Below are positions 3,833 to 14,909 of a DNA stretch of 36,691 nt, piece by piece. A model generated the notes under the pieces. It ran no database searches. It was given only the letters and a program-made list of their open reading frames with translations, and was not told where the DNA came from. Each line of letters starts with the position of its first letter. Position 1 is the stretch's first letter. The stretch comes from a virus: positions 1 to 36,691 of IMG/VR virus record IMGVR_UViG_3300045988_165663, one strand, 5' to 3'. The translations under genes and the position numbers were made by a program.

Positions 3833-4234
3833 ATGGTAGTGAAACTCGCAACTTCACTTACTACTACACTACTTCTTTTTACACGCGGAAAGATTTTTAC
3901 AATGTATAACTTAATTCAAAATACACTAGGAGATACTAGCTTTGTTATGCTAAACAAGGCAGTTATTAAGGAATTAGGATTGCACGAAGCAGTAGTGCTA
4001 GGCTTTTTTGCAGATAGATGGGCTTATTTTGAACACGCGGATTTTTACTACATGATACATCAAGTATCAAACGATACCGGCTTAAGTGAGAGAGAATGCA
4101 GAAACATTATCAGCAAGCTAGTAGATAAAGGCATTTTAGTTAAGACGGGGTTTAGAGGCGCGCCTCCTAAGCAATTTTACAATCTTAACAAAGATGCGCT
4201 TATTAAGTATGAGGGGGCTTGGCATGTTGAATAA
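3833..4234 (+). CDS. winged-helix protein paralogous to the N-terminal domain of the replication protein (alternative start ATG 3902)
   Basis: VIKELGLHEAVVLGFF...ISKLVDKGILVKTGF aligns with VAKRLGIVEAVLLHNI...LKQLVDDGWLIKDNF of the 4273 gene. Confidence 0.5.
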   Translation: MVVKLATSLTTTLLLFTRGKIFTMYNLIQNTLGDTSFVMLNKAVIKELGLHEAVVLGFFADRWAYFEHADFYYMIHQVSNDTGLSERECRNIISKLVDKGILVKTGFRGAPPKQFYNLNKDALIKYEGAWHVE

Positions 4235-4272
4235 AAAACTACAAAAAAATTTCACAATCAAGGAGTTTTAGC

Positions 4273-5226
4273 ATGAGCTATCACATGTTTAATACACAAG
4301 TAGCCAAAAGATTGGGGATAGTGGAAGCAGTTTTGCTACACAATATCCAGTTTTGGATAGATAAAAATAGAGTGAATGAGAAGCACTTTTACAAGGGCAG
4401 ATATTGGACTTATAACTCTGCAAAGGCATTTTCAGAATTATTCGAGTATTTATCAGACAGACAAATAAGCAGGGCATTGAAGCAATTGGTAGATGATGGG
4501 TGGCTTATTAAAGACAATTTTAATACTAACCCATTTGACAGAACTAATTGGTATGCCTTAACCGATAAATACTACAACGAATTTATGAGTCAGAATGGAG
4601 TAGAGAATAGTTGCGAACCGATACACAAAACAAAGGACGCCGATTTGCCAAAAATGGTAAATGGTAAAACAAAAAGTGGCAATTCTTATATAGATACAGA
4701 TATTAAACCAGATATTAAAAGAGCAGATATAAACACAAATATAAACACAGATTCTCACGCGAAAACACAAAAAGACATAGCAGATTCTTTGTTTGGTTTT
4801 TTTGGTTTTGAAAGTGAAAATTCAGTTTCTGCCTCTAAAGCAAAAGAGAAACAAGACGACTTAGAAAGCTTAGAGAATGAATTTAATCAGATTTGGGAGA
4901 TATATCCAAAAAAGCAAGATAAACAAGCAGCGCTTAATAGCTATATAAAAGCCAGAAAGGGGTCAAAAATCGCTTTAAATAGTAGAGGTAATACCAAAGT
5001 AGCCTCTCAATCATTTGAAACGATTTTAAAGGGCGTTAGAAACTATTTAAGAGCTAATAGAGGAGTCGAGATTAAGTTTATTAAGCACTTAAGCACATTT
5101 CTTAATCAGCAGGCATATTTGGATTTTCAAGGTGAGGTTAATTTAAATCGGCGCGTTGGAGTTGTAGATAACCACGAGGACTATATAAACGCGGATAAGA
5201 GCATATATATCCCCAAACCTAAATAA
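4273..5226 (+). CDS. replication initiation / replisome-organiser protein (N-terminal wHTH, DnaD-like)
   Basis: wHTH N-domain, position immediately upstream of the DnaC-like loader, and internal iteron-like repeats at 4680..4760. Confidence 0.55.
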   Translation: MSYHMFNTQVAKRLGIVEAVLLHNIQFWIDKNRVNEKHFYKGRYWTYNSAKAFSELFEYLSDRQISRALKQLVDDGWLIKDNFNTNPFDRTNWYALTDKYYNEFMSQNGVENSCEPIHKTKDADLPKMVNGKTKSGNSYIDTDIKPDIKRADINTNINTDSHAKTQKDIADSLFGFFGFESENSVSASKAKEKQDDLESLENEFNQIWEIYPKKQDKQAALNSYIKARKGSKIALNSRGNTKVASQSFETILKGVRNYLRANRGVEIKFIKHLSTFLNQQAYLDFQGEVNLNRRVGVVDNHEDYINADKSIYIPKPK

Positions 5227-5288: not shown

Positions 5289-5555
5289 ATGGCATTTCAT
5301 AGAGATGGATTTACCGGTATCAAAAAGATTTATCGCGACAATGGCAGGTTATATTGTGAGGTAGAGTGTAAAGATGGAAAATTTAACGGCATCTACAAGG
5401 TTTATTATGAGAACAGAAAGCTAAGCCGTTTTTATTTGTATAAAGATGGCTTAAGGCATGGGACTTGTAGGGATTATGATGCCAAAGAGAGGCTAATTAG
5501 AGAGAGAGTATATCAAGATGGAGTCTTAATAAGTCAAAGGGATATTGTATGGTAA
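5289..5555 (+). CDS. MORN-repeat (YwqK-like) protein, paralogue 2
   Basis: IYRDNGRLYCEVECKDGKFNGIYKVYYENRKL...YKDGLRHGTCRDYD repeats. Confidence 0.6.
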   Translation: MAFHRDGFTGIKKIYRDNGRLYCEVECKDGKFNGIYKVYYENRKLSRFYLYKDGLRHGTCRDYDAKERLIRERVYQDGVLISQRDIVW

Positions 5556-7156: not shown

Positions 7157-7483
7157 ATGAGAAAGCTTAACCTAAAGCAACAAGTTATAAACGAATATTA
7201 TGCCAGCGGTCAGATTATGAACATATGCGAATATGTGAATAATAAAAAAAATGGCTGGGATATTTGGTTTCATGAAAACGGCAATAAATGGATAGAAGCA
7301 GAATATAAAGACGATATACAACACGGCTTAGAGAGATACTACGACAACCAAGGGATTATAATATATGAGAGGCCATATAAAAACGATGAGATAGATGGGA
7401 CAGAGCGGTGGTTTGATGAGTTTGGAAATGTAATAAAAGAATATGAGTATAGAGATTCTGTCCGGCAATTAAGCAAAGGTTAA
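7157..7483 (+). CDS. MORN-repeat (YwqK-like) protein, paralogue 3
   Basis: WFHENGNKWIEAEYKDDIQHGLERYYDNQGIIIYERPYKNDEIDGTERWFDEFGNV is a textbook MORN variant repeat. Confidence 0.65.
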   Translation: MRKLNLKQQVINEYYASGQIMNICEYVNNKKNGWDIWFHENGNKWIEAEYKDDIQHGLERYYDNQGIIIYERPYKNDEIDGTERWFDEFGNVIKEYEYRDSVRQLSKG

Positions 7484-7530: not shown

Positions 7531-8319
7531 ATGGAAAAACTTAGTTTAACACAAGAGGATTACAGGGCTTATCCAGCATTAAGCACTAGCGATATTAAGC
7601 AAGTGCTAGATAATCCTTACAAGTTTAGAATCGGCTTTAAGACAGAGGAAACTCCAGCAATGAAGCTAGGTAGCTTGGTGCATACCCTTGTATTAGAGCC
7701 TTCAGAGTTTAATAAAACCTATGCAATAGCGCCCATCGCGGATAAACGCACAAAAGAGGGCAAATCAATATGGGCGGAGTTTTCAGAAGCAAATCAAGAC
7801 AAAATCATTATAGATTCTGCCATGTATGAAACCGCTAAAGGAATGCTACATAGCTTAAAAACAAGCGGGGTTTTTGAGAGATACTTTACACAAGGCGAGG
7901 CAGAGTCTAGCTACATAGGCGAGGCTTTAGGTGCAAAAATAAAGGTGCGTCCGGATTTCTTTAATCTTGAAAAAAACCTTATAGTGGATTTGAAATGCGT
8001 TAGTAATGCCAGTGCAAAGGGATTTCAAAGACTATGCGCTAACCTTAGATATTACATACAAGCCTATTTGTATATGAAAATCACGGGTGCTAAGCAGTTT
8101 ATCTTTGTGGCTATTGAAACCAAAGAACCTTACACAATAGGCATTTATGAGTTGGATTACATAGCCTTAGAATTAGCAGAAGCAGAGGTTAAAAAAGCCT
8201 TGCAGATAATAAGCGATATGGACGAGCTAGACAATATTATAAACGTGTATGGCTACCAGAGCATAGAGCCGGTTATGTTGGCACTCCCAAACTATGTTTT
8301 TTATGATAGCGAGGCATAA
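7531..8319 (+). CDS. PD-(D/E)XK family exonuclease (phage recombination exonuclease, YqaJ/Cas4-like fold)
   Basis: RPDFF...LIVDLKCV (D...D-x-K) motif plus a QAYLY segment. Located upstream of the annealase and SSB genes. Confidence 0.65.
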   Translation: MEKLSLTQEDYRAYPALSTSDIKQVLDNPYKFRIGFKTEETPAMKLGSLVHTLVLEPSEFNKTYAIAPIADKRTKEGKSIWAEFSEANQDKIIIDSAMYETAKGMLHSLKTSGVFERYFTQGEAESSYIGEALGAKIKVRPDFFNLEKNLIVDLKCVSNASAKGFQRLCANLRYYIQAYLYMKITGAKQFIFVAIETKEPYTIGIYELDYIALELAEAEVKKALQIISDMDELDNIINVYGYQSIEPVMLALPNYVFYDSEA

Positions 8320-8320
8320 C

Positions 8321-8881
8321 ATGGGAGGCGTGAAAAAGGTTAAGGGCTTTTGGGTAGATAAGAATAACAATTGCTGGGATTCTTTAATCTACACAAAAGA
8401 GGAAGCCTTAGAGTATTCTAAGAGCTTAGAAAATTGTAGAGATTGCGTTAATTGTATCAAGTGTAAAAATTGCATATCTTGTATAAATTGTGATAATTGT
8501 ATCAATTGCAAAGAGTGCAAAGACTGCACACATTGTGATATTTGTGAAAATTGCATCTTTTGTAAAGGTTGCAGAGAGTGTCAGGATTGCTATTCTTGCA
8601 AAAATTGTAAGGTTTGCAAATCTTGTAAGTATTGCGATGATTGCAGGGCTTGTATTGATTGTGAGGATTGTAAAGAGTGTGAAAAATGCTCAGCAAGTTA
8701 TCGTTGTGCATCTTGTAAATCTTGTATAGGTTGCTTTGATTGTAATTTTTGCGATGATTGTAGTCGTTGTAAAGATTGCGGATATTGTGTATATTGCAGT
8801 GGTTGTAAAACTTGTAGAAATTGTAAGTGGTGCAAGGATTATAAAGAGCGTTTTAATATCCACTTAAGAGCAGAATCATAA
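8321..8881 (+). CDS. cysteine-triplet repeat protein: about 44 consecutive X-X-Cys units after a 45-aa unique N-terminus
   Basis: Preferred start is ATG 8321, just after the upstream stop at 8317..8319. The translation reads NCRDCVNCIKCKNCISCINCDNCINCKECKDC... with Cys at every third residue over about 135 aa. The DNA shows a 9-nt periodic TGY signal across 8432..8836. Confidence 0.6.
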   Translation: MGGVKKVKGFWVDKNNNCWDSLIYTKEEALEYSKSLENCRDCVNCIKCKNCISCINCDNCINCKECKDCTHCDICENCIFCKGCRECQDCYSCKNCKVCKSCKYCDDCRACIDCEDCKECEKCSASYRCASCKSCIGCFDCNFCDDCSRCKDCGYCVYCSGCKTCRNCKWCKDYKERFNIHLRAES

Positions 8882-8999
8882 TTAGTTTGGTGCAGATTTA
8901 AGGCATCTGCAGGAAGCGTAAAGCTAGCCATCTCTTTATACCATCGGTATTCGAGCATTGGCATTATATCAAAATTTTTCTTGATTTCAACACAAATCG

Positions 9000-9062
9000 C
9001 AATTAAGTATTTTTTAAGAAATAATTACTTATAATTACACACATATAAATAAAGGAGCTTAT
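9000..9062 (+). promoter_or_regulatory. promoter/RBS cassette copy (TATAAT 9030..9035)
   Basis: AATTAAGTATTTTTTAAGAAATAATTACTTATAATTACAC...ATAAAGGAGCTTATATG. Confidence 0.45.
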
Positions 9063-9692
9063 ATGGAAAAAACAATCTACAAAAAGTTAATGGAAATACA
9101 GTCGAGTTTAAAGGCTAACAAAAGCCGTTTTAATAAGTTTGGGGGCTTTTCATACAGAAGCGCAGAGGATATTTTGGAAGCAGTGAAGCCCTTGCTAAAA
9201 CAAAATGGCTTAGTGCTTGTTTGTAGTGATAGTATAGACAATGGAATCCTAACCGCTACTTATAGCTTAATTGATGTGGATACCGGCGAATCGGTTACTA
9301 ATAGCGCAGTGGCTATTGTAGGCGAGCATAAAGGTATGAGTGCAGAGCAGAACACGGGGTGCGCTAGTAGCTATGCAAGGAAATACGCACTTAATGGCTT
9401 GTTTGCTATCGATGATAGCAGTGCAGACCCGGATTCTATGCCAGCAGAAAAAGAAGCTAAGCCTATGCCAGCAGAAAAATCTAAAGCAAAGAGCGAGCTA
9501 TTGGAAGCTAAAAAGCTACTAATGAAAGCCTTTAATGATGCCGGTGTAAAAAACAATAACGATATTAAGGAAATCTTGGAGTCAATCAAACTAGATACAA
9601 ACAATCCGGAAACAATAAAGGAATTTTTAAGTTTAAACCATAGAGAGATTATCCGAGAAAACATGAGAAAAATTGCAGAGAAGGTATTTTAA
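9063..9692 (+). CDS. single-strand annealing protein, Erf-like
   Basis: N-terminal KLMEIQSSL...FSYRSAEDILEAVKPLLKQNGL and central GCASSYARKYALNGLFAIDD resemble Erf-family SSAPs. Sits in an exonuclease-SSAP-SSB gene order. Confidence 0.55.
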   Translation: MEKTIYKKLMEIQSSLKANKSRFNKFGGFSYRSAEDILEAVKPLLKQNGLVLVCSDSIDNGILTATYSLIDVDTGESVTNSAVAIVGEHKGMSAEQNTGCASSYARKYALNGLFAIDDSSADPDSMPAEKEAKPMPAEKSKAKSELLEAKKLLMKAFNDAGVKNNNDIKEILESIKLDTNNPETIKEFLSLNHREIIRENMRKIAEKVF

Positions 9693-9707: not shown

Positions 9708-10169
9708 ATGCTTAATAATCTATCAATCTTAGGACGCGTTACAAAACCGCTAGAATTAAGGTATTTGCAGAATGGAACAGCGGTGCTAAATTTCGATATA
9801 GCAAACTCTCTCAAGGTAAAAGATAGCGAGCCAGTTGTTACATATCTTAGGTGCGTGTGCTATGGTAGAGGTGCAGAGGTTATTAATCAGTTTGTAGGAA
9901 AAGGGGATAGAGTGCTTTTGCAAGGGGAGTTAAGGCAAAATAGCTACAAAGACTCTACTGGTGCTACAAAGACTTATCACTACTTGCAAGTGAATAATTT
10001 TGACTTTATAGAATTTAAGAACAAAAAACAAACACAAAATCCAGAAGCAACACAACAAGCACAAGGTAAGCAAGGGGAGAGCATTATGGGATATGTTAAA
10101 GATGCCATGAAACCAAAAACCCAGAAAACAATAGACTTTGAAATATCAGACGATGATATACCATTTTAA
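9708..10169 (+). CDS. ssb: single-stranded DNA-binding protein
   Basis: OB-fold N-terminus (LSILGRVTKPLELRYLQNGTAVLNFDIA), Gln/Gly-rich linker and acidic C-terminal tail DDDIPF. Confidence 0.9.
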   Translation: MLNNLSILGRVTKPLELRYLQNGTAVLNFDIANSLKVKDSEPVVTYLRCVCYGRGAEVINQFVGKGDRVLLQGELRQNSYKDSTGATKTYHYLQVNNFDFIEFKNKKQTQNPEATQQAQGKQGESIMGYVKDAMKPKTQKTIDFEISDDDIPF

Positions 10170-11688: not shown

Positions 11689-12072
11689 TTGAGAGGTTTT
11701 AATAAGTTTAGAAACATAAAGATAAATAATGCCACTTTTGGCAAATTCGATTCTACATTGGAATACAACACTTTTTTGTATCTCCTAGCACTACAACAAC
11801 ACGGGAAAATATCAGAGTTAAAAAGACAAGTAGCAATCGATTTAACTCCGCTAAAGCAAAAGCATAAGGTTAAGTATGTATGCGATTTTCTCTATAAAGA
11901 CAAGGAACGCGGGTTAATTATTGCAGACGCTAAAGGTATGTTAAGGCCAGAGTATAGAGTTAAGAGAGAGTGGTTGTTATACCAGTTTAAGGGATTTGTT
12001 TTTATTGAATTCTACAAAGAGAAAATAAAAGAGTATCTGCCATCAGGGAGTATTGATATTTTTAGTAATTAA
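11689..12072 (+). CDS. DUF1064-like phage protein (predicted restriction-endonuclease-like fold)
   Basis: FDSTLEYNTFLYLLALQQHGKISELKRQVAIDLTP...VKYVCDFLYKDKERGLIIADAKG matches the pattern recalled for DUF1064 phage proteins. TTG start with GGGGG RBS. Confidence 0.5.
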   Translation: MRGFNKFRNIKINNATFGKFDSTLEYNTFLYLLALQQHGKISELKRQVAIDLTPLKQKHKVKYVCDFLYKDKERGLIIADAKGMLRPEYRVKREWLLYQFKGFVFIEFYKEKIKEYLPSGSIDIFSN

Positions 12073-12130
12073 GTATTATTTAAGAATAAATAGTTATAAT
12101 TACAGCGTAAATTTAAATAAAGGAGCTAGA
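12068..12130 (+). promoter_or_regulatory. promoter/RBS cassette, near-consensus copy (TATAAT 12095..12100)
   Basis: TAATTAAGTATTATTTAAGAATAAATAGTTATAATTACAGCG...ATAAAGGAGCTAGAATG. Confidence 0.55.
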
Positions 12131-12874
12131 ATGAAAAGAGAGATAGAATATATCTATGGGGATAAAGACAATAATATACTAAGACAACGCGTTTCTAAGT
12201 TAGGCAATATAAGACACGGGCTTACGATATGTTATTACAATGCGAGAACCCCTTGCAATATAAGACACGGGCTTACGATATGTTATTACAATGTGAGAAC
12301 CCCTTATCGCAAGATTCTTTATAAGTTTGGCAAGAGGGTTGCAGAATTATTCTTGTTTGAGAATAGCAAAGGCGATATTGTAAAGTCTAAGACAAACTCT
12401 TTTTCTGAATTAGTCAAAGAGGGCAGAAAAACCATATTAAAGGAATGGCAAGCAACAAAAAGAGGGGTGTTTTTAAAATCTGAAGCAGAAATAAAGAATG
12501 GTGTTTTGCATGGCAAAAAAGTCGTTTATGATTCTGATGGCTGGGTTAGTCAAATTATGCAATATAGAGATGGTAAGCTTGAGGGCGCGTCTTATTCTTA
12601 CAACAAAGATGCTGATATTGTAACCGAGATAAATTATAAAAATGATGTTAGACACGGCGAGGCTTTTCTTGTTGGAAGCTCCATGTTTGGCGAGGGCGCG
12701 CTTACAAAAGGTGTGCGAGTTTTAAGCGATAAATCCACTAGTAATAAAGAGTTTGTAGCACTATATGAAAATGGCAATGTAATCGAGTTATATTTCTCTA
12801 GGTTTGGCATAAAAATAGCAAAGGTGCATGAGAATATGATTAGTGAAATCATATTGCACGGGGATTTACCATAA
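12131..12874 (+). CDS. MORN-repeat-containing protein, paralogue 4, with an in-frame 51-bp tandem duplication near the N-terminus
   Basis: Start chosen at ATG 12131 (RBS AAGGAG) rather than the track's 12053. C-terminal KNGVLHGKKVVYDSDGWVSQIMQYRDGKLEGASYSYNKDADIVTEINYKNDVRHGEAF MORN units. Duplication NIRHGLTICYYNARTPC / NIRHGLTICYYNVRTPY. Confidence 0.6.
   Translation: MKREIEYIYGDKDNNILRQRVSKLGNIRHGLTICYYNARTPCNIRHGLTICYYNVRTPYRKILYKFGKRVAELFLFENSKGDIVKSKTNSFSELVKEGRKTILKEWQATKRGVFLKSEAEIKNGVLHGKKVVYDSDGWVSQIMQYRDGKLEGASYSYNKDADIVTEINYKNDVRHGEAFLVGSSMFGEGALTKGVRVLSDKSTSNKEFVALYENGNVIELYFSRFGIKIAKVHENMISEIILHGDLP
12206..12307 (+). repeat. 51-bp direct tandem duplication (2 copies, 2 mismatches) inside the CDS
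   Basis: AATATAAGACACGGGCTTACGATATGTTATTACAATG(C/T)GAGAACCCCTT(GC/AT) at 12206..12256 and 12257..12307. Confidence 0.85.
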
Positions 12875-13622: not shown

Positions 13623-14909
13623 ATGAGTGTAGGAAAGCAATTAAGCTTATTTGACTTTATCGAAAACCCTTTTGGTGTGATAGATACTAATCAAACCACT
13701 AACACAGATTCTATTAAAAACCTTAATGCTTGCATCCCTTACAAAGGAAGCAAGAGAAAGATTAGCCACTTGATACTACAAGAGCTAAGAAACCATGCTC
13801 CACAAGCGAAATATTTTTATGATATGTTTGGCGGTGGTGGTGCAATGGCTTTAAACGCGCATTTTAACGGATACAAGACTCACTACAATGAGCTAGATAT
13901 AGACGTGTATGTGTATATGAAGTTTCTAATATCCCGGCTACAAAATAAAAAAGGTAAATATGGGATTTTGCCTGATGAGTGGTATAGGTTTATTACAAAG
14001 GCAGAATTTGACAAGATTAAGGCAGACAAAACGCCGAGCGCATATAGAAGCTTTGTTTTGCTTAATTACAGCTTTGCTAATGATTGGAATACCTACTTTT
14101 GCAATAAAGAAAAAGAGCTATTCAAACAAAAAGGGCATTATCTATTGCTAGACAACGACAAAGAGTGCGCAGAGTGGTGGGATAATCACTTTAAAGAGAA
14201 TGGAAGCGTAGCAGGCATATATAATCATTTGCATAGTGAGATATATCCTAGCCTTAACTGGAGAGAGCGGAGAGCTTATTTTGTGAATATAACCCTTAAG
14301 ATAGAAGCAATAAGAGTTGCAGGGATAGCGTATTTATTTCAAAAGAAAAGCAACGCGGATACATACAAGGCAGTTAAGGATATATCACAAAAAGACTTAT
14401 GCAGGCTTATAGATAAACATAATCCGGATTTACCTAAGAAAAACTACAAAGGAACACAAGGCAAAGGATTAACCGAGCTTAAGCAATTACAGCGATTAGA
14501 GCAATTACAGCAATTACAGCAATTACAGCAATTACAGCAATTACAGCAATTAGAGCGATTACAGCAATTAGAGCGATTAGAGCTAATCACACACACGAAT
14601 CTGGATTATGCAGAAGTAAAAATAAGCACTCCTCCACAAGACACAATCATATATGCAGACCCGCCTTATTCAAATACTAGCGAGTATAAATTGTGTGGAA
14701 ATAGCTTTGATTATGAGCGATTCTACCAGTGGTGTATAGACAAGGCAAAGCAAGGGTATTATGTTTTTATAAGCGAATATAATATGCCACAAGATAGGTT
14801 TAAAGAGGTATGGAGTAAGGATACTTTAGCAAATTTTAACACTATCAAAAAAGATTGTGGTGCAAGAGTAAGACCACAAAGAGTCGAGCGTCTTTTTATG
14901 GTGCGTTAG
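13623..14909 (+). CDS. DNA N6-adenine methyltransferase, Dam/D12 class (orphan), with an internal (QLQ)n repeat linker
   Basis: N-terminal motif IPYKGSKRK and a C-terminal DPPY motif (IIYADPPYSNTSEY). Between them lies LKQLQRLEQLQQLQQLQQLQQLQQLERLQQLERLEL, encoded by 9-bp tandem repeats. Confidence 0.85.
   Translation: MSVGKQLSLFDFIENPFGVIDTNQTTNTDSIKNLNACIPYKGSKRKISHLILQELRNHAPQAKYFYDMFGGGGAMALNAHFNGYKTHYNELDIDVYVYMKFLISRLQNKKGKYGILPDEWYRFITKAEFDKIKADKTPSAYRSFVLLNYSFANDWNTYFCNKEKELFKQKGHYLLLDNDKECAEWWDNHFKENGSVAGIYNHLHSEIYPSLNWRERRAYFVNITLKIEAIRVAGIAYLFQKKSNADTYKAVKDISQKDLCRLIDKHNPDLPKKNYKGTQGKGLTELKQLQRLEQLQQLQQLQQLQQLQQLERLQQLERLELITHTNLDYAEVKISTPPQDTIIYADPPYSNTSEYKLCGNSFDYERFYQWCIDKAKQGYYVFISEYNMPQDRFKEVWSKDTLANFNTIKKDCGARVRPQRVERLFMVR
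14483..14584 (+). repeat. 9-bp tandem repeat (CAATTACAG / CGATTAGAG), about 11 units, in frame within the methyltransferase gene
   Basis: Read directly: cagcaattacagcaattacagcaattacag... Confidence 0.85.

Follow-up and report, generated by a model that had tools for sequence, protein, structure and literature searches.

What kind of protein places a cysteine at every third residue along most of its length, and what could a phage use it for? This question was raised by the gene at 8321-8881 on the plus strand of IMG/VR virus record IMGVR_UViG_3300045988_165663, of which positions 1 to 36,691 were analysed (36,691 nucleotides, hereafter the window). The gene encodes 186 amino acids, most of which form an array of Cys-Xaa-Xaa tripeptides (xxC array). 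The explanation that we favoured, and to which we gave roughly an even chance, was that the array folds into a beta-solenoid rod with a cysteine core. Such a rod would serve as a rigid display or binding scaffold, accessory to infection and not part of core recombination.

The cysteine-array gene and its family

The translation showed the array as an earlier note on this DNA had described it, with about 44 strictly spaced triplets and one 6-residue break. The protein contained 45 Cys, one at residue 18 and 44 at residues 39-171. Forty-two of the array spacings were exactly 3 and one was 6, at CSASYRC, where Ser stood for the in-register Cys and the period of 3 was preserved. The unique N-terminus claimed by the note was real, but it covered 38 residues and not 45. 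The array spanned 133 residues, close to the expected 135 or so, and was 33% Cys. The short basic tail was also found, as the slightly basic KDYKERFNIHLRAES. The net charge was +3, with an isoelectric point (pI) of 7.7, or 8.8 when Cys was counted as Ser. There was no signal-peptide-like N-terminus, since hydrophobic runs among the first 35 residues reached 4 residues at most, and the protein was therefore considered cytoplasmic. An exact-sequence look-up found the protein in no record.

An in-frame ATG was also present upstream at 8294. The start was placed at 8321 because of the GAGG at 8311-8314, the exonuclease stop codon at 8317-8319 and the homologue P0001, which begins MEGVKKVKGF at the Met equivalent to 8321. 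The stop codon of the exonuclease gene ended 1 nucleotide ahead of the ATG, which suggests that translation of the two genes may be coupled. We considered whether the open reading frame (ORF) was a by-product of a DNA-level repeat with no functional protein. The region was of low complexity, and the artefactual ORFs predicted by the note were present in other frames and on the minus strand. Examples were 8490-8729 on the plus strand and 8502-8711 and 8690-8863 on the minus strand, all of low complexity and derived from the 9-nucleotide TGY period. However, in more than 1,000 clusters it was this frame alone that was conserved, together with a non-repetitive N-terminal domain, which answered the check on frame conservation that the note had proposed. 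Both Cys codons were used (TGT 26, TGC 19), and the 9-nucleotide periodicity was weak, with 66% matches in Tandem Repeats Finder. This meant that the period was held at the protein level and not by recent DNA duplication. The by-product reading was effectively refuted by the frame conservation, the codon use and the good Shine-Dalgarno sequence, with a start abutting the upstream stop, and its probability was considered negligible. Judged from these sequence features, 8321-8881 is a genuine translated gene.

The window protein matched no Pfam family at E<=0.1, no NCBIfam family at E<=10 (TIGRFAMs models included) and no PADLOC model; HMMER composition filters could mask weak repeat matches in such scans. 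That the protein belonged to no described family was therefore correct for Pfam and NCBIfam, but PHROG 15341 ('unknown function') matched residues 5-132 over profile positions 2-133 with E 1.1e-35. The consensus of the N-terminal domain (the leader) alone matched this PHROG with E 1e-15. On these profile matches the window protein belongs to PHROG 15341, a large uncharacterised and mainly phage-borne family. A phmmer search of 1.84 billion cluster representatives gave 1,232 clusters at E<=1e-3, of which 260 reached E<=1e-10, mostly from phages or metagenomes, and a profile search matched 228 proteins. Among the Campylobacter Eucampyvirinae, 15 phages had homologues by tblastn, annotated as 'hypothetical protein'; CP220, CPt10, CP21 and IBB35 were among these phages. 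Leader-based scans added 53 viral loci from IMG/VR and 12 loci in bacterial genomes, the latter including Helicobacter bilis, Clostridiales, Peptococcaceae and Erysipelotrichales.

Members of PHROG 15341 included CPt10_1641, CP21_165/166 and IBB35 H6SUK4 (Foldseek against BFVD, E 7e-9). The Campylobacter phage members had the same N-terminal domain and xxC array as the window protein. However, their phages were large lytic myoviruses in which the gene lay near helicase and phosphatase or portal and ligase genes and not between exo and erf. CPt10_1641 carried an old weak 'insect antifreeze' Pfam repeat annotation. The UniProt label 'CaiB/BaiF family protein' on H6SUK4 was judged a misnomer, as nothing in its sequence looked like a CoA-transferase. 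The protein was not mentioned in the Campylobacter phage genome papers (CP220/CPt10, CP21, IBB35). A literature search on CxxC-repeat, Cys-ladder or antifreeze-like phage proteins turned up only the paper on heterocycloanthracins; a 2026 preprint on 'cysteine-rich repeats' treated another motif, Cx6-9Cx5-7C... Among the weaker matches was a separate family of about 300 residues (P0094, P0096, P0098, P0101, P0109, P0113), with short xxC runs split by other Cys spacings and the motif 'K.YCIFN..Y[ST]KEEY'. It was unrelated to the leader-bearing phage family.

Array composition and predicted fold

The family was modular, with a conserved N-terminal domain ahead of C-x-[N/D/G] tripeptides in variable number. 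The N-terminal domain comprised 38 residues with the family consensus MKKINGYWVDENNNKWDAKKYTEEEAIKASKSLINCKN. Its hidden Markov model (HMM) matched 169 of the 253 proteins, in most cases at their N-terminal end; in some proteins the domain was doubled or internal. Its motif was G-[YF]-[WY]-x-D-x-N-x-N-x-W ... A ... S-x-x-L-x-x-C followed by the C-x-x repeats, and it was present in the window protein as GFWVDKNNNCWDSLIYTKEEALEYSKSLENCRDC. Between the window protein and P0001 this domain was identical at 35 of 39 positions, whereas the products of the neighbouring exo, erf and ssb genes shared 69-81% identity, which indicated purifying selection on the domain. In P0122, P0189 and P0116, the xxC arrays were preceded by another N-terminal motif, FL.EHNIT.EE[FY]...N.[ST]N..C, several times per protein.

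In the family arrays, 90.6% of the Cys-Cys spacings were exactly 3, and the breaks were mostly 6 or 9 residues. The register was maintained from the first to the last Cys in 284 of 312 arrays. The first position after Cys was mainly K, T, E, I or V, and the second was N in 26%, D in 25% and G in 9% of the tripeptides. N, D and G are typical corner residues. We examined the residues that replaced Cys in register (n=240). Ser accounted for 45% and Leu for 19%, followed by I, V, A and M, whereas N, D, R and H occurred at only 0.08-0.35 of the frequency that they had between the Cys positions. His and Asp almost never stood in for an array Cys. Since no single-nucleotide change turns TGY into a Leu codon, the replacements looked like the result of selection and not of mutational proximity. 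These substitutions showed that the Cys position has the character of a buried residue, as read from the family sequences.

The structure prediction was obtained using AlphaFold2 (AF2). The N-terminal domain was predicted as three short strands and one helix with a confidence score (pLDDT) of 82-93. For residues 1-100 the pLDDT was 76, and a regular 'E--E--E' pattern appeared with a beta-bridge at the residue after each Cys. The full-length model had a mean pLDDT of 58 and was good only to about residue 80. Independently of the model, a phmmer search of PDB sequences ranked the Tenebrio molitor antifreeze protein 1ezg first with E 0.031. In the 12-residue coil of 1EZG, TCTxSxxCxxAx, every third residue points inward (Cys, Ser, Cys, Ala). 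This inward period of 3 was the same as the Cys period in the window array. The earlier note had offered a disulfide- or metal-stapled rod as one of its two structural ideas, and the AF2 solenoid, the top PDB match and the buried-type substitutions made it the best-supported structural reading. The beta-solenoid with a Cys core was moderately supported.

In the rod that we propose, the array would fold as a very narrow beta-solenoid of the Tenebrio antifreeze type with four tripeptides, about 12 residues, per turn. Each Cys would point inward, the following residue would form the inter-turn beta-bridge, and the N, D or G residue would form the corner. With 44 tripeptides, the rod would have about 11 turns and measure about 5 nm in length, and an unbroken column of sulfur would make up its core. 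Within the reducing cytoplasm, metal ions may staple this column, and in an oxidised protein disulfides may take their place. The N-terminal domain was assumed to cap the array.

The predicted likeness to the antifreeze protein did not extend to membership of its family (PDB 1EZG, PF02420), because there was no Pfam match at E<=0.1 to the 12-residue model. The antifreeze protein has two inward Cys positions per turn, compared with all four predicted for the window protein. It carries a Thr-x-Thr ice-binding face, whereas the window array had no TxT ladder. It is also secreted and disulfide-bonded, in contrast to the cytoplasmic, phage-encoded window protein. On sequence criteria, the window protein is thus not a member; it may work like the Tenebrio antifreeze proteins but stands outside their family, with no evidence of common descent. 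A parallel in design was seen in the pentapeptide-repeat (Qnr/MfpA) and hexapeptide-like phage proteins, where a short repeat gives a regular beta-helix of adjustable length, as predicted for xxC. However, their repeat unit is 5 or 6 with Leu, Phe or Ile in the core, while the xxC unit is 3 with Cys in the core, and the window protein matched no Pfam repeat family. To our knowledge, a unit of three residues would be the shortest repeat in a beta-helix. The repeat beta-helix itself is known, and what may be new here, if the models hold, is a 3-residue unit with an all-Cys core in a widespread uncharacterised phage family.

A rod was not the only way to read an array with 33% Cys. The other structural idea of the note was a metallothionein-like scavenger. 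As such a metal sponge, the protein would take up Zn, Cu, Cd or Fe in the infected cell; the fold would be secondary, and the protein could, for example, starve metal-dependent nucleases of the host or buffer toxicity. Repeated CxxC is a classical chelating spacing, and the protein was cytoplasmic with no signal peptide. This explanation also overlapped in part with the rod, since a metal-stapled rod would bind metal too. However, metallothioneins mix CxC, CC and CxxC motifs, whereas the window array had a strict period of 3, was longer and was predicted to be beta-structured. The period was far stricter than in metallothioneins across the family as well, with register kept across breaks. Cys was replaced by Ser, Leu and other aliphatic residues and not by other ligands, and no Pfam metallothionein match was found. 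The conserved folded N-terminal domain, the turn-type second position and the solenoid prediction pointed to a defined architecture, so that a metal sponge appeared unlikely. Ferredoxins likewise have high Cys content and CxxC spacing. A 4Fe-4S ferredoxin was rejected because the array had no CxxCxxCxxxCP motif, there was no Pfam Fer4 match and PsaC appeared only as a weak phmmer match (E 0.2-0.4). That the protein was not a ferredoxin, a zinc finger or a Sel1 protein, as the note had stated, agreed with the absence of any such Pfam match.

Repeat number, genomic context and possible role

The length of the array varied strongly among proteins that shared the N-terminal domain and the tail, with 11 repeats in P0012, 17 in P0001 and 44 in the window protein. 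The homologues in CPt10 and CP21 had 142 and 285 residues, compared with 186 in the window protein. Fifty-four members were simple, consisting of the N-terminal domain, an array and a short tail; their median was 104 residues and 16 Cys, and the window protein was the maximum with 45 Cys. The motif 'C-K-D-Y-K' marked the end of the array, also in members with a further C-terminal domain. Tandem paralogues were frequent and were found in loci L003 (two), L006 and L009 (three each), L038 (four) and L047 and in phage CP21 (two). In L003, a Logan contig (SRR15410196) and the nearest relative, tandem genes at 4030-4347 (105 residues) and 4349-4789 (146 residues) lay between exo and erf, each with its own N-terminal domain, and the window had one 186-residue gene at that place. 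No remnant of a second paralogue was found in the 181-nucleotide gap at 8882-9062, where only the 85 nucleotides upstream of erf were common to L003.

Additional domains were rare but varied. They included the N-terminal domain of a dGTP diphosphohydrolase (twice), FMN reductase, U-box, PC4 and a weak Tad2-like match. P0189 carried an S-adenosylmethionine lyase domain, P0027 was called NTP pyrophosphatase by its source, and the very long proteins P0125 and P0126 had extended xxC arrays and matched no Pfam family. A C-terminal domain, 'IGSR...CGCF' (phrog_20532/7964), recurred after xxC arrays or after hexapeptide-like G-[ND]-A-x-[VI] arrays, which were read from their sequences as probable beta-helix repeats. 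Since a subset of xxC proteins shared this domain with the hexapeptide-like proteins, the xxC array may be an interchangeable stalk; the window protein itself did not carry the domain. The domain was widespread in phages. There was no Pfam match to it in P0036, the sole carrier with a reported individual scan, and PDB sequence searches with this domain and with the profile of the N-terminal domain gave chance-level matches only. A form of the motif, 'IGSR...CGCF...EF..V...H', also ended two proteins with hexapeptide-like repeats, L070 1856-2770 (Chryseobacterium phage MA9V-1) and L071 2264-2704 (Clostridium phage Amboise). The sole annotation on these two was 'UDP-3-O-(3-hydroxymyristoyl) glucosamine N-acyltransferase', on one of them.

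We then considered the position of the gene. The note had named the neighbours as exonuclease, Erf and SSB, which the Pfam matches bore out, and from this position it had considered an anti-RecBCD or anti-restriction role conceivable. In that case the rod would block RecBCD/AddAB or restriction enzymes from the slot of Gam or Abc, possibly as a DNA mimic. The gene lay between exo and erf in the window, L003 and L004. When the window exo, erf and ssb products were compared by tblastn with the other fetched loci, this order was confined to these two close relatives, and the note's question of whether homologues always lie there was answered in the negative. Outside L003 and L004, the only match was a weak one to SSB in L012, although distant analogues could escape such a search. 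Among immediate neighbours at 52 loci, Pfam matched helicases at 5 loci, ATP-dependent ligases at 3, SNF2-related proteins at 2 and metallophosphatases at 2. Single cases were a DNA methylase, Erf, PD-(D/E)XK nucleases, a pyrimidine-dimer glycosylase, PAPS reductase and an antirepressor, and many neighbours were small ORFs without a match. Second neighbours added helix-turn-helix regulators, portal, sheath, Dam, NADAR and primase. This survey indicated no tie of the family to recombination; most of its members lay in early regions, among genes of DNA metabolism or in accessory regions.

The charge of the proteins also bore on a DNA mimic. The pI ranged from 4.05 to about 10 in the family with a median of 5.2, and some members were strongly acidic; CP21_166 was visibly rich in Asp and Glu. 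Of 253 arrays scored, 197 had a negative and 40 a positive net charge. The window protein was not acidic, and the strongly acidic surface of mimics of the Ocr, Gam and Gp5.9 type was absent. Going by sequence, an acidic DNA-mimic surface is not a feature of the family and is absent in the window protein. A helix of the antifreeze type is far narrower than B-DNA, which counted against a mimic, whereas a metal site with four Cys in each turn would make the rod polyanionic. With the synteny lost beyond the nearest relatives and a net charge of +3, we considered a nuclease inhibitor or DNA mimic rather improbable. The anti-RecBCD role that the note had drawn from the position of the gene was not supported.

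A further explanation was a precursor of a ribosomally synthesized and post-translationally modified peptide (RiPP), in which the Cys of a Cys-Xaa-Xaa core behind a leader would be converted to thiazol(in)es or thioethers. The layout was formally like that of the heterocycloanthracins, which have a conserved leader, Cys-Xaa-Xaa repeats with strain-variable repeat number and precursors that can lie far from their maturases (PMC2674419). Indels in threes are also common to the xxC family and this sonorensin-type thiazole/oxazole-modified microcin group (TIGR03601; PMC2674419). However, the leader model did not match, and no NCBIfam match was found. No cyclodehydratase, dehydrogenase or scaffold gene, nor any other maturase gene, was found among the scanned ORFs of the window phage. 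YcaO, SagB, radical-SAM, lanthipeptide and export genes were absent from the first and second neighbours at the 52 loci. Heterocycloanthracins are Gly-rich, whereas xxC arrays were much longer, charged or Asn-rich at positions 1 and 2, and part of a protein that was predicted to be folded. The arrays reached 285 to more than 400 residues and were fused to enzymes and large proteins, and the leader was predicted to be folded and could be doubled or internal. The RiPP explanation was thus very improbable.

Based on the above results, we returned to the rod with a Cys core. Only the Cys and the corner residues were constrained, and the exterior and the repeat number changed fast, which led us to propose a rigid display or binding scaffold. 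The strict core, the free surface, the fast change in length, the tandem paralogues and the accessory context together suggested that such a scaffold would bind through its surface. As an accessory protein, the rod would bind a factor of the host or of the phage early in infection, and host takeover or counter-defence appeared to be its most plausible arena.

Several results weighed against this explanation. The full-length model had no Foldseek match in the PDB, although it was poor beyond residue 80, and hhalign gave no usable alignment of the family with the antifreeze sequence. No super-period of 4 tripeptides (12 residues) was detected in residue classes, identities or repeat counts. A search for higher-order periods gave weak N/D/G peaks at lags of 3, 4 and 8 tripeptides, none of which was significant after per-array shuffling, and there was no mod-4 preference. 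The 12 residues per turn and the stapling by metal or disulfide were inferred. The scarcity of His and Asp at the array Cys positions was unlike the usual classical Zn sites. The counter-defence idea was drawn from the context and a handful of fusions, with no match in PADLOC, and no functional data on any family member were found in the literature.

A different use of the same fold was also considered. The all-Cys core may bind a column of metal, with about one M(Cys)4 per turn and about 11 sites. Each M(Cys)4 site would be net negative, which would turn the metal-loaded rod into a rigid polyanion. A phage could use it to counter a host nuclease or defence system, either as a decoy resembling nucleic acid or, if the metal is Fe, as a redox wire. 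We considered this unlikely. If true, a metal-thiolate ladder within a beta-helix would be a new metalloprotein architecture.

If the model of the rod is right, a very common phage module with more than 1,000 sequence clusters is described in no curated database, and a beta-helix with a three-residue repeat can have a core made wholly of cysteine. This raises the questions of how a cytoplasmic protein with 44 stacked thiols folds, whether it holds metal and what a phage does with an easily resized rod. A part in phage-host conflict is reasonable to consider for the family, given its tandem paralogues, its rapidly changing repeat number and its occasional fusions to S-adenosylmethionine lyase or other nucleotide-metabolism domains. 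Protein engineers may also find the scaffold of interest.

The window phage and its other repeats

The window phage of about 36 kb encoded KilA-N, a DnaC-like ATPase, exo/erf/ssb, holin and a Dam-type methylase. Its structural genes were terminase, portal, a DUF3383 protein, a minor tail protein and baseplate J. The DNA had distant similarity to Campylobacter phages PC22, PC11 and DA10. The best explanation was a temperate Campylobacterota-type phage with the Cys gene in its early region. The features of the locus are collected in Table 1.

Table 1. Coordinates of the Cys-array gene, its parts and its neighbours in the window.
Feature	Position	Strand	Basis
DUF3799 PD-(D/E)XK exonuclease, upstream neighbour	7531..8319	+	Pfam PF12684, E 3.8e-30
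Shine-Dalgarno GAGG, 6 nucleotides upstream of ATG	8311..8314	+	Read from sequence
Cys-triplet protein coding sequence, 186 residues	8321..8881	+	Stop codon within range; translation, PHROG 15341 match, 1,232 homologous clusters
N-terminal domain, residues 1-38	8321..8434	+	Leader HMM, AF2, conservation
Low-complexity artefact ORFs, other frames and minus strand	8389..8867	both strands	ORF list
C-x-x tripeptide array, residues 39-171, 44 Cys	8435..8833	+	Predicted beta-solenoid, Cys in core
Lone array break CSASYRC, residues 123-129	8687..8707	+	Read from sequence
Short C-terminal tail KDYKERFNIHLRAES	8834..8878	+	Kept in close relatives P0001, P0012
Erf single-strand annealing protein, downstream neighbour	9063..9692	+	Pfam PF04404, E 4.8e-37
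SSB	9708..10169	+	Pfam PF00436, E 3.7e-21

In the gap at 8882-9062, a strong sigma-70-like promoter match was observed at 8963-8990 on the minus strand (TTGAAA, 16-nucleotide spacer, TG-TATAAT, 11/12), directed antisense into the 3' end of the Cys gene. Promoter-like sites were overall no commoner than in shuffled sequence, and this match may be due to chance.

Other repeats were found in the window. A 9-nucleotide tandem repeat, AGCAATTAC, was located at 14482-14583 with 11.3 copies and 89% matches, within ORF 13623-14909. This ORF encoded a D12-class DNA adenine methyltransferase, and the AGCAATTAC tract encoded an (LQQ/QLQ)n/LER linker that joined the halves of the enzyme. The linker was the second tripeptide-repeat tract of the window phage and could vary in length. 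A 51-bp tandem duplication at 12204-12305 (2.0 copies, 98% identity) in ORF 12053-12874 repeated the peptide NIRHGLTICYYNxRTP and looked recent. This ORF and ORF 5289-5555 gave weak MORN_2 matches in Pfam below the cut-off, and ORF 7157-7483, just upstream of the exonuclease gene, encoded a clear MORN_2-variant repeat protein.

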